The notes under the pieces were generated by a model. It did no database searches. It was given only the letters and a program-made list of their open reading frames with translations, and was not told where the DNA came from. A stretch of DNA of 44,333 bases from a virus (taxonomy: Duplodnaviria; Heunggongvirae; Uroviricota; Caudoviricetes), in IMG/VR virus record IMGVR_UViG_2909246061_000002, positions 1-44,333 of that record; one strand, given 5' to 3'. The translations under genes were made by a program, and so were the position numbers. Shown in pieces: positions 202 to 43,325 of the stretch. Numbering within the stretch: the first letter of the stretch is position 1; each line of letters begins with the position of its first letter.

Positions 202-220
202 GAGTGCTATCTCCGAATAG

Positions 221-236
221 GGAATCGAACCTGCAA
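221..236. repeat. 16-bp exact copy (GGAATCGAACCTGCAA) of the argW T-arm segment found at 43265..43280; att-core-like
   Basis: Exact 16/16 identity between 221..236 and 43265..43280; flanking bases differ on both sides. Confidence 0.5.
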
Positions 237-15663: not shown

Positions 15664-16202
15664 ATATATGAATGCTTAAATATGGTGGAACATAATGAGA
15701 AATATAAGCAACATAGACGAATTAAGAAATAAATTATCATATGATGATGTTTTAGGTGTACTTAGATGGAAAGTGTCTCCTTCTAATAATGTTAAGGTTG
15801 GCAGTGTTGCTGGTTACATTAGGAGTGATGGTTATAGGATGTTAACTATCGATGGTGTAATTACTTATGCTCACCACGTTATATGGATGATAAATAATGG
15901 TGAGATTCCATTAGGGTATAAAATTGATCATATAAATGGAGTAAGGTCAGATAATAGGCTATCTAATCTTCGATTGGTTACACACCAACAGAATGCACAG
16001 AACCAAAAGAGAAAAATAACCAATTCGTCAGGAGTGACTGGAGTATATTTCAATAAAGAGAGATGTAAGTGGATTGCGAATATATGCGTAGATGGGCGCA
16101 CCAAATATCTTGGAATATTTGCTAGCATCATTGACGCTATTGCAGAAAGGAAGAGGGCAGAAAAAGAACTGGGTTTTCATGAAAACCATGGCAGACCATA
16201 AC
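15664..16202 (+). mobile_element. free-standing HNH homing-endonuclease gene insertion
   Basis: AT-rich 539-bp segment precisely between the two Cys codons of ninF; carries one HNH-AP2 ORF. Confidence 0.7.
15695..16201 (+). CDS. HNH homing endonuclease with AP2-like DNA-binding domain
   Basis: 168 aa; HNH motif IDHINGVRSDNRLSNLRLVTHQQN; C-terminal AP2-like SGVTGVYFNKERCKWIANICVDGRTKYLGIF. Confidence 0.8.
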   Translation: MRNISNIDELRNKLSYDDVLGVLRWKVSPSNNVKVGSVAGYIRSDGYRMLTIDGVITYAHHVIWMINNGEIPLGYKIDHINGVRSDNRLSNLRLVTHQQNAQNQKRKITNSSGVTGVYFNKERCKWIANICVDGRTKYLGIFASIIDAIAERKRAEKELGFHENHGRP

Positions 16203-16254: not shown

Positions 16255-16866
16255 ATGGCTAAACCAGCGCGAAGACGATGTAAAAACGATGAATGTCGGG
16301 AATGGTTTCACCCTGCATTCGCTAATCAGTGGTGGTGCTCTCCAGAGTGTGGAACAAAGATAGCACTGGAACGACGAAGCAAAGAACGCGAAAAAGCGGA
16401 AAAAGCAGCAGAGAAGAAACGACGACGAGAGGAGCAGAAACAGAAAGATAAACTGAAGATTCGAAAACTCGCCTTAAAGCCCCGCAGTTACTGGATTAAA
16501 CAAGCCCAACAAGCTGTAAACGCCTTCATCAGAGAAAGAGACCGCGACTTACCATGTATCTCGTGCGGAACGCTCACGTCTGCTCAGTGGGATGCCGGAC
16601 ATTACCGGACAACTGCTGCGGCACCTCAACTCCGATTTGATGAACGCAATATTCACAAGCAATGCGTGGTGTGCAACCAGCACAAAAGCGGAAATCTCGT
16701 TCCGTATCGCGTCGAACTGATTAGCCGTATCGGGCAGGAAGCAGTAGACGAAATCGAATCAAACCATAACCGCCATCGCTGGACTGTCGAAGAGTGCAGG
16801 GCCATCAAGGCGGAGTATCAGCAGAAACTCAAAGACCTGCGAAACAGCAGAAGTGAGGCCGCATGA
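16255..16866 (+). CDS. ninG: NinG (Rap)-like recombination endonuclease
   Basis: 203 aa; Cys-rich N-terminus and overall match to lambda NinG as I recall it; overlaps the ninF 3' fragment as in lambda. Confidence 0.85.
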
Positions 16867-16909
16867 CGTTCTCAGTAAAAACCATTCCAGATCACAAGGG
16901 AGAAGGCGC

Positions 16910-17428
16910 ATGGGCATAAGAGAACTAAACCTCACCAAAGAACAGCACGAGTGGCTGAATTGCTGGCTTGAACTGTGGGGCGCATGGGTTTATTCAGGTC
17001 GTCTGGAAAAGCGCATGAGCAGCGTAATAGCGAAGTTCATGGAGAGCGTAGAGCCGGGAAGAGTTATGACAAGGCCAATGTGCAATGATGATGATGGAAT
17101 GTTGATTTCTCAGGTCGTCGATTCCGTCATGTACATTGACAAGAAAGCCTTTGGCATCCTCCTCAGCTACTACGCTCATGGTTCATCTAAGCGAGCAATT
17201 GCATCCTACTATCACGCGACTGCAAAGCCACGCAAGATGTGTGGACGTGGTGGCGAGGGATGGAGAAAACCTTCACTGGCAACCTGTAGAAACGAAATTG
17301 ACGACATCCTGAAAGCGTCGTTATTTGTTTTGTACCAGCCAATGCAAAATGCTTTCAAAATGCGTAAACGTGTTGAGAAAGTTAAGCATGTTGCTGTTAA
17401 AAGCCTTGACATGCAATTATCCATTTAG
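16910..17428 (+). CDS. Q-like late antiterminator (start may instead be GTG 16853)
   Basis: Position before the lysis genes; motifs WGAWVYSG and RPMCNDDDGML resemble Q proteins of the phage 82/21 type as I recall them. Confidence 0.65.
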   Translation: MGIRELNLTKEQHEWLNCWLELWGAWVYSGRLEKRMSSVIAKFMESVEPGRVMTRPMCNDDDGMLISQVVDSVMYIDKKAFGILLSYYAHGSSKRAIASYYHATAKPRKMCGRGGEGWRKPSLATCRNEIDDILKASLFVLYQPMQNAFKMRKRVEKVKHVAVKSLDMQLSI

Positions 17429-17435
17429 CCATAAT
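17406..17435 (+). promoter_or_regulatory. candidate late promoter PR' (TTGACA, 18-bp spacer, CATAAT)
   Basis: Near-consensus sigma70 hexamers at the 3' end of the Q gene, where lambdoid late promoters lie. Confidence 0.4.
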
Positions 17436-17445
17436 TAGAAGGTAA

Positions 17446-17487
17446 GCTGCCGTTAGTGACTCTTAAGTTGCAACGGTGGCTTTTTTT
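17446..17487 (+). terminator. candidate tR'-like hairpin with T7 tract downstream of the late promoter
   Basis: Stem GCTGCCGTT/AACGGTGGC followed by TTTTTTT. Confidence 0.35.
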
Positions 17488-17937
17488 GTTTGCACAACAG
17501 GTAAGAGCATTGAACCCGCAGACCTCGCGGAATTGGTGAAAGGTGCCGCGCAGTGCTCTTATCGTTGTGGTGAAGCTCAATGGCGAGCTAGCAGATAGGC
17601 GACAGTGAAAATACTAGTCATGTAGCTGACCGCCGCGCGTACTGCAATCGGCAGCGCACCGATGGAAGCCGGTTCGATTCCGGCCGCCACAACCCAAACT
17701 GAGCCGTAGCCACTGGCTATCCTGAATTCATCAGTGATAGTTACGCTGCGGCCTTCTACACATGACCTTCGTGAAAGCGGGTGGCATGAGGTTGCGCTAA
17801 CAACCTCCTGCCGTTTTGCCCGTGCATATCGGTCACGAACAAATCTGATTACTAAACACAGTAGCCTGGATTTGTTCTATCAGTAACCGACCATATTCCT
17901 AATTAAATAGAGCAAATCCCCTTATTGGGGGTAAGAC

Positions 17938-43250: not shown

Positions 43251-43325
43251 TGGTGTCCCCTGCAGGAATCGAACCTGCAATTAGCCCTTAGGAGGGGCTC
43301 GTTATATCCATTTAACTAAGAGGAC
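43251..43325 (-). tRNA. argW: tRNA-Arg (anticodon CCU)
   Basis: Minus strand reads GTCCTCTTAGTTAAATGGATATAACGAGCCCCTCCTAAGGGCTAATTGCAGGTTCGATTCCTGCAGGGGACACCA; cloverleaf with CCT anticodon and encoded CCA. Confidence 0.9.
43265..43280. repeat. 16-bp att core within the argW T-arm (copy of 221..236)
   Basis: Exact repeat of 221..236; lies between the tRNA 5' part and the integrase-proximal tRNA 3' end. Confidence 0.5.

Follow-up and report, generated by a model that had tools for sequence, protein, structure and literature searches.

What occupies the roughly 450 nucleotides (nt) of non-coding DNA that separate the antiterminator gene Q from the holin gene S in the lambdoid, P22/HK75-like prophage studied here? 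The sequence is IMG/VR record IMGVR_UViG_2909246061_000002 (Duplodnaviria; Heunggongvirae; Uroviricota; Caudoviricetes), taken over its positions 1 to 44,333 and called the window below, and its Q-holin interval holds the late promoter PR', the terminator tR' and an RNA element. An earlier reading of the letters alone (the original prediction) had noticed a T-arm and an acceptor-like strand there, had described them as a tRNA-like 3' fragment at 17621-17695, and had offered three explanations: a decayed tRNA gene, a tRNA-like structured RNA on the late leader, or a remnant attachment target. Our best reading is that the element at 17564-17693 (+), together with a companion hairpin H1, is an intact gene for a tRNA-shaped non-coding RNA of about 130 nt belonging to an undescribed family from phages and prophages of Enterobacteriaceae and Pantoea.

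A strand-specific, tRNA-shaped RNA without an anticodon

Minimum free energy folding of 17490-17705 and of 17567-17696 gives a five-way junction with a tRNA-like layout, whose terminal stem, D-arm, long arm X, extra hairpin and T-arm follow each other in the order of a class II tRNA (Table 1). The perfect T-arm had been placed correctly, as had the acceptor-like strand CGCCACA behind it (17685-17691, with ACCC next at 17692-17695) and its sole 7-bp partner TGTGGTG (17566-17572), which together span the 127 nt from 17566 to 17692 that had been calculated. The description as a fragment did not hold up, since the proposed extent covers only the 3' half of a complete 130-nt element that is preceded by H1. 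An AA linker joins the terminal stem to the D-arm, and GGAA stands before the T-arm. In arm X, double changes are found in two of three pairs of the basal stem (17591-94/17642-45) and in six of nine pairs of the upper stem (17598-17605/17626-17634); its internal loop is conserved (AUA / GCGCGUA), and its apical loop comprises 20 nt (17606-17625, UGAAAAUACUAGUCAUGUAG). The short hairpin that follows has a near-invariant stem and the loop consensus NNNCGCA. A tertiary contact of this loop (GCGC) with the GCGCG bulge of arm X was considered and dropped, because the loop variants (CAUCGCA) and the bulge variants (ACGCGUA, GCGCGCA) do not co-vary.

An alignment of 36 non-redundant sequences (A5) was evaluated against 500 shuffles and against slid structures as controls. 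The proposed structure leaves 95.6% of cells paired and has 16 pairs that are changed on both sides, with a covariation score of 0.310 compared to 0.131 in shuffles (none of the 500 reaches it) and 0.03-0.10 in the slid controls; RNAalifold agrees with this structure. Pair -1:73 occurs as GC (15), UA (11) and AU (7), and this covariation extends the terminal stem to at least 9 bp; pair -2:74 occurs as GC (31) and AU (4). Metagenomic members add compensatory variants of the hairpin stem (AUCAG/CUGAU, AUAGG/CCUAU and ACCGG/CCGGU), and G.U pairs are frequent on the + strand only, which assigns the RNA to that strand. All helices are thus maintained by compensatory substitutions on the + strand, and what is conserved is a strand-specific, tRNA-shaped RNA with an intact elbow, a coaxial stack of terminal stem and T-stem, and no anticodon. 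A covariance model of the family (R1) has a single match in the window, at 17561-17697 with 151 bits. The structural support is strong, while the functional model discussed below is unproven.

The suggestion of a structured RNA on the late leader is therefore borne out, as compensatory changes preserve the fold in phages that are not related to each other. The decay of a tRNA gene, or a recombination scar left by a disrupted tRNA cassette of the late leader, might seem a natural explanation at a site between Q/PR' and the holin, where relatives carry tRNA genes: within the same boundaries, Sf6, phage 21, BTP1 and L have tRNA-Asn together with tRNA-Thr or tRNA-Leu, and tRNA genes have been reported in the late-leader slot of related phages (PMC8022706). 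ARAGORN and the Rfam tRNA model also reject the sequence as a tRNA. Degeneration is nevertheless highly improbable when every helix, including those of the non-tRNA arms, shows compensatory changes, when the element keeps 73-97% identity across unrelated phage groups and hosts and is intact in four transcriptional settings, and when the parts least like a tRNA (the long arm, its internal loop and the invariant hairpin) are the best conserved.

How much of a tRNA is left was assessed feature by feature. The elbow is present in all members (a UUCRANY T-loop and the GG of the D-arm). As a canonical tRNA the element fails, with no ARAGORN call at this place and no match to RF00005 at gathering score (29 bits). 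It also lacks a canonical anticodon arm: arm X fills that position with its 20-nt loop, and the sole 5-bp/7-nt hairpin has A33 and C37. The original prediction had found no canonical anticodon stem-loop, and this stands for the loop, as CAGCGCA has neither U33 nor a purine at 37, but not for the stem-loop as such, because the 5-bp/7-nt hairpin exists and ends 4 nt upstream of the T-arm, the spacing of a canonical anticodon arm. Nor is there a 7-bp acceptor with a free discriminator and CCA, since -1:73 and -2:74 are paired and covary and CCA after the stem is missing in about half of the subtypes. An unusual tRNA that is still decoding or aminoacylated, either of class II, its anticodon arm enlarged or interrupted by an intron, or similar to transfer-messenger RNA (tmRNA), would fit the class II-like layout, in which an additional arm precedes the T-arm, the sub-threshold tmRNA match described below and the ACCA that follows the 9-bp stem in N-leader members, and one deposited record even labels 58 nt of the element as tRNA-Ser. 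When R1 was run on real tRNAs no score was significant, and the best T4 match was a tRNA-Ser (16.6 bits). We consider such a tRNA very improbable, given that no loop combines U33 with a purine at 37, that the apical loop of 20 nt contains a palindrome, and that 3:70 is U:A, whereas tmRNA requires G.U there to be charged with alanine.

The palindrome in question is a hexamer whose self-complementarity holds for all 36 aligned sequences and for 91 of 94 distinct complete members. It differs between lineages, with ACUAGU in the window and UCUAGA, UCGCGA, ACCGGU, GCUAGC, UCCGGA and UCUGGA elsewhere, and its self-complementarity survives at least five double substitutions. Within a single RNA the hexamer has no second copy to pair with, so two molecules joined through their loops (a kissing contact) are the simplest explanation, and the covariation of the hexamer, from which we argue here, suggests a kissing-loop dimer; with a single self-complementary loop, a dimer is the most that would be predicted.

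The same hexamer bears on the idea that the conserved feature is DNA, be it a target for attachment or recombination or a palindrome to which a protein binds. Six of the seven variants are palindromic as DNA, too, direct repeats of CACAAC flank the module, and tRNA-like 3' ends are of the kind often targeted by integrases. However, the abundant UCUGGA variant is self-complementary only via G.U and so points to RNA, the many G.U pairs on the + strand only contradict a DNA site, and the helices covary instead of conserving their sequence. The remnant attachment target of the original prediction is further disfavoured by the prophage's own attachment (att) duplicate elsewhere, at about 205-235, matching a tRNA-Arg(CCU) gene at 43251-43325 (-) that is the sole ARAGORN call in the window. 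The T-loop sequence GGTTCGANTCC has three copies in the window compared to 0.11 expected, and the two besides that of the element lie in this tRNA-Arg gene and in its att duplicate. We regard a DNA-level element as extremely improbable, and the three readings as decayed tRNA, functional tRNA and DNA site jointly take up only a very small share of the probability.

Table 1. Features of the Q-holin interval and of related loci (window positions unless a locus is named)
Feature	Position	Strand	Remarks
Q antiterminator open reading frame (ORF)	16853-17428		Pfam PF06530; NinG and HNH endonuclease genes precede
PR' late promoter	17406-17435	+	TTGACA-18-CATAAT, 11/12 consensus matches; pR' annotated at the equivalent position in HK75 and Sf6
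tR' intrinsic terminator of late leader	17445-17486 (approximate)	+	HK75 annotation transferred by alignment; hairpin and U-run visible
Companion hairpin H1	17500-17563	+	64 nt, flush with terminal stem; predicted folds
Terminal (acceptor-like) stem, 5' strand	17564-17572	+	GUUGUGGUG; pairs with 17685-17693; all 9 pairs kept
D-arm	17574-17589	+	A:U plus GCUC/GAGC stem, AAUGGC loop with elbow GG; 99.4% paired, almost invariant
Long arm X	17591-17645	+	Anticodon-arm position; 55 nt; folding and covariation
Self-complementary hexamer ACUAGU	17613-17618	+	Apical loop; candidate kissing-loop dimerisation site
Hairpin AUCGG-CAGCGCA-CCGAU	17647-17663	+	5 bp/7 nt; variable-arm position (anticodon-arm position counting from T-arm)
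T-arm GCCGG-UUCGAUU-CCGGC	17668-17684	+	Double changes in 2/5 pairs
Terminal stem, 3' strand	17685-17693	+	CGCCACAAC; then CCA at 17694-17696
Lambda-type holin S	start 17938		
CUS-3-type RNA	L003 (CUS-3) 766-993; L210 800-1040; L211 800-1030		

Distribution and transcriptional settings

Homologues of the 130-nt element are found by blastn in phages that are otherwise unrelated, among them Skatevirus (Skate, Seszw, vB_CECAV_048, INT55/59 and PSH-1), Akiravirus, gmqsjt-1, Pantoea phage PdC23, the P22-like BIS08P22 and the HK75-like lambdoid type. Of 5,426 complete E. coli genomes, 344 carry the element and 163 of these have the full module; a pattern scan of IMG/VR gave more than 119 loci, and a metagenome scan with the D-arm pattern gave 58, of which 57 match the covariance model. 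Among species-representative genomes (a pattern scan of GTDB), real carriers are confined to Enterobacteriaceae, 17 of the 21 pattern matches being discounted as chance matches inside unrelated sequence. One contig of a metagenome-assembled genome labelled Cellvibrionaceae (L135) is identical to E. coli phage sequence, which suggests contamination or mis-binning.

The element moves between these phages as a cassette that includes H1, and it is found in four settings. In setting A, represented by the window and HK75, it lies in the late leader immediately after tR'. In setting B a terminator stands upstream and a second intrinsic terminator 9 nt downstream, followed by the holin. In setting C, that of P22-like and lambdoid members, it belongs to the PL leader, where a boxB-like hairpin (AGGCUGAAAAGCCU) precedes it and the ribosome-binding site of N follows; there the terminal stem of 9 bp continues after a bulged A with 7-11 more covarying pairs into a helix of about 16-20 bp. 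Examples are BIS08P22 (L009, 1465-1653) and, similarly, L006, L021, L046 and L060. In lambda, an RNase III-sensitive hairpin of the N leader occupies the equivalent position. In setting D (Akira), promoter, H1, element, tRNA-Met and terminator form a unit of their own on the strand opposite to the flanking genes. Four independent settings argue for a self-contained, trans-acting product. Clustering of 3,329 ORFs around 132 loci revealed no protein family that different settings have in common.

In the window, the Q-holin region is 99% identical to that of phage HK75, whose annotation is empty between tR' and the holin. PR' is the sole consensus promoter seen in a promoter scan upstream of the element, and the position downstream of tR' implies that transcription is expected only by Q-modified (or read-through) polymerase. 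The holin start is 245 nt away. H1 can be extended to 17493-17569 by pairing of CACAAC with GUUGUG, and a frame of the form CACAACAGGTAAGAGCA...GTGCTCTT..GTTGTG is also found upstream of the element in phage Akira and in CUS-3. Immediately before the element, the 3' strand of H1 includes a boxA-like TGCTCTTA (17554-17561), which in related members reads TGCTCTTTCC or TACTCTTTCC. The short ORFs that overlap the element are not preserved among members, and a protein-coding reading was rejected because members differ by 1-nt indels and paired substitutions.

An HNH (PF13392) homing-type endonuclease gene at 15695-16201 (+) lies 1.4 kb upstream of the element, and related HNH genes are found at up to 3 kb from it in 25 of 132 loci; this looks incidental, although it may be tied to the mobility of the cassette. 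Homing endonucleases flank the element in Akira, PdC23 and BIS08P22. At the window's ends, the third T-loop copy (221-231) falls inside an 18-nt repeat (the TTGCAGGTTCGATTCC region) at 205-235 (-) that copies the 3' part of the tRNA-Arg(CCU) gene. The pair looks like the attL/attR core of a prophage integrated in that tRNA gene and, if this is right, the window covers essentially the whole prophage.

In the late-leader slot of the element, CUS-3, IME10, Huey and numerous prophages of K1 and uropathogenic E. coli have another undescribed structured RNA, about 230 nt long. It shares H1, the terminal stem (UGUGGUG-AA ... CGCCACA), a D-like hairpin and a T-like arm with the element, but differs in a branched interior of about 215 nt and in a T-like loop of 9 nt (AGUUCAGCA). 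Fourteen pairs are doubly changed among only three sequences, R1 and Rfam give no match to it, and in one phage each of Hafnia and Aeromonas its homologues adjoin tRNA genes. This RNA hints at a wider superfamily of phage RNAs built on a tRNA scaffold.

No Rfam family was identified for the window and eight homologous loci either at gathering score or in E-value mode (ARAGORN was run on these as well), so that the tRNA and covariance searches proposed by the original prediction returned neither a tRNA nor a family above threshold at the element. The literature searched on tRNA-like RNAs of lambdoid phages and prophages, on decoys, on kissing loops and on the conserved sequence itself contained no description of it. 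No feature is annotated over the element in HK75 and in 17 of 20 matching E. coli genomes, and it is unannotated or mis-annotated in every record that we examined: it appears as a coding sequence for "polyubiquitin-A" in ON470589/ON470594, as the above-mentioned "tRNA-Ser" in PQ186186 (58 nt; L004, 1587-1644) and as "hypothetical protein" in further records. This is so even though few genomes have been studied as well as those of lambdoid and P22-like phages, and Rfam, too, lacks this conserved structured RNA. The Q-holin interval seems to collect several non-coding RNA genes, another example being the Pas small RNAs near holin genes, which are different and of Hfq type (bioRxiv 10.64898/2026.05.13.724894). 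In one prophage contig, Rfam matches an STnc100 small RNA (49.6 bits; L057, 1160-1362) directly downstream of the terminator of the element.

Possible action in trans or in cis

A slot for tRNA genes, a retained elbow and a discarded anticodon together suggest a natural tRNA mimic with a non-decoding job. In the model that we favour, transcription of the element would be confined to late lytic growth and would depend on Q-modified polymerase. The host nucleases that process tRNAs (RNase P and those of 3' trimming) would probably release it as a stable small RNA, and a second copy would pair with it through the self-complementary hexamer of the loop. The RNA would then act in trans by occupying or diverting a host factor that recognises the elbow and the acceptor stack. 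Our leading guess is that it may serve as a decoy for a tRNA-targeting defence or enzyme. A role in trans is favoured by the insulated units of settings B and D and by single-stranded motifs that are invariant whatever lies downstream. We assign a probability of roughly 0.5 to this trans-acting tRNA-mimic model as a whole. A broader version, in which the cassettes of the tRNA slot are processed by the host, dimerise through kissing loops, serve as decoys against anticodon nucleases, tRNA-targeting defence or tRNA-binding enzymes, and form one superfamily with the CUS-3-type RNA, is speculative and on balance improbable.

Several points weigh against the favoured model. Expression, processing, dimerisation and action are all inferred steps. 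The terminal stem of at least 9 bp with its covarying -1:73 and -2:74 pairs, longer by 7-11 bp in N-leader members, does not resemble a substrate of RNase P, whose 5' leader is free, and better fits an embedded domain, and CCA after the stem is not conserved. The self-duplex of the window's hexamer is weak (-5.8 kcal/mol, equalled by 272 of 500 shuffled loops), and three short members have no palindromic loop, their apical part being a 7-nt loop (UGAAGAG), so that the dimerisation feature is not universal. The short members, of 121 nt, are located at L203 364-484, L198 11792-11912, L156 867-987 and L200 975-1095; their hairpin stem is ACCGG/CCGGU, and the loop capping the arm reads CGAAGAG in L156 and L200. 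Finally, the near-isoenergetic alternative between H1 and terminal stem described next suits a cis-acting switch or a processing site, and two of the four settings place the element directly in an mRNA leader, where a role in cis is possible.

That alternative arises because GUUGUG at 17564-69 has two partners, CACAAC at 17493-98, which makes a longer H1, and CACAAC at 17688-93, which makes the terminal stem. The two pairing states are predicted at -79.5 and -80.1 kcal/mol, only 0.6 kcal/mol apart, and an analogous triple, CCAAAG/CUUUGG/CCAAAG, recurs in the N-leader members. The arrangement may act as a switch in folding, or may have arisen when the cassette was inserted.

The principal rival is a leader module that acts in cis on its own transcript, either as a processing site (for RNase P at the elbow and stem, or for RNase III on the long closing helix) or as a switch between H1 and terminal stem; in either role it would determine how stable the mRNA is, or would separate translation downstream from the 5' leader and its qut or nutL complex. 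The exact placement of P22-like and lambdoid members between the boxB-like nutL hairpin and the N ribosome-binding site, their extended covarying closing helix, and the two-partner arrangements in both the window and the N-leader members all speak for such a module. Yet a terminator separates the element from the next gene in some members, the Akira copy stands apart from its neighbours, in a unit that includes a tRNA and is encoded on the other strand, and the holin start of the window is not close by. Loops and internal loop are, moreover, invariant in sequence across settings, which points to a common partner in trans. We therefore consider action in cis a serious but rather unlikely alternative to the trans-acting tRNA mimic.

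Phage-host conflict around tRNAs is a very active field. If the element is a decoy or a regulator, it would add an RNA layer to this conflict, and if the counter-defence reading is true, classical lambdoid phages would possess an RNA-based device for counter-defence or host takeover. From the covarying palindromic loop, in turn, follows a prediction that can be tested directly, namely that the RNA dimerises.

Comparison with known RNAs

The best permissive Rfam match of the element is tmRNA (RF00023), with 20.2 bits and an E-value of 3e-6 compared to a gathering score of 47; no other Rfam model reaches a low E-value, and the match to RF00005 in E-value mode is weaker. Both RNAs have a tRNA-like shell with a large insertion at the position of the anticodon, and RF00023 aligns to the T-arm and the 3' strand. 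The element, however, has no tag reading frame and no pseudoknots, carries U3:A70 in place of G3.U70 and is about one third of the size; the alignment deletes a core of 316 positions, and ARAGORN reports no tmRNA. Class II tRNAs resemble the element in arm order and in the nucleotides of the elbow (GG of the D-loop and UUCGAYU of the T-loop). They differ from it in that the element has no anticodon loop, a stem of at least 9 bp with 73 and 74 paired, A8 instead of U8, a D-loop of only 6 nt and four unpaired bases between extra arm and T-stem.

YrlA and other bacterial Y RNAs, which are bound by Rsr, are likewise non-decoding RNAs with a tRNA-like elbow, and some YrlA-type RNAs are encoded by phages. 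In YrlA the tRNA-like domain is topologically permuted, both termini of the RNA are part of a Ro-binding stem, and the gene is a neighbour of rsr, which encodes the Ro60 orthologue. The element is unlike these RNAs in its canonical order, in the lack of rsr or any other conserved neighbour at 132 loci, and in having no such Rfam match at E<=10. GOLLD and ROOL, two phage RNAs encoded close to tRNA islands, assemble with copies of themselves by way of covarying kissing loops (PMC12286853). They are comparable to the element as non-coding RNAs of phages and prophages that often lie beside tRNA islands, but they comprise 500-800+ nt, assemble into cages of 8 to 14 copies and are not tRNA-shaped, and their Rfam models do not match the element.

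The nearest analogue is species 1 RNA of phage T4 (rnaC, 139 nt), which is phage-encoded within the T4 tRNA cluster. In its predicted fold, a terminal stem sits on a canonical T-arm (CCGGGUUCGAAUCCCGG), a long arm replaces the anticodon arm and a second hairpin precedes the T-arm, as in the element; unlike the element, it has no D-arm in this fold and no palindromic apical hexamer, and it belongs to the Tevenvirinae. R1 gives no match on T4 rnaC or rnaD, blastn finds no T-even phage, and Rfam has no rnaC family. Both RNAs share a tRNA neighbourhood, seen for the element in the unit with tRNA-Met of Akira and in the tRNAs that Sf6 carries in the slot of the window. T4 rnaC has no known function, and the RNA family described here may shed light on the 50-year-old puzzle of the small stable RNAs of T4.

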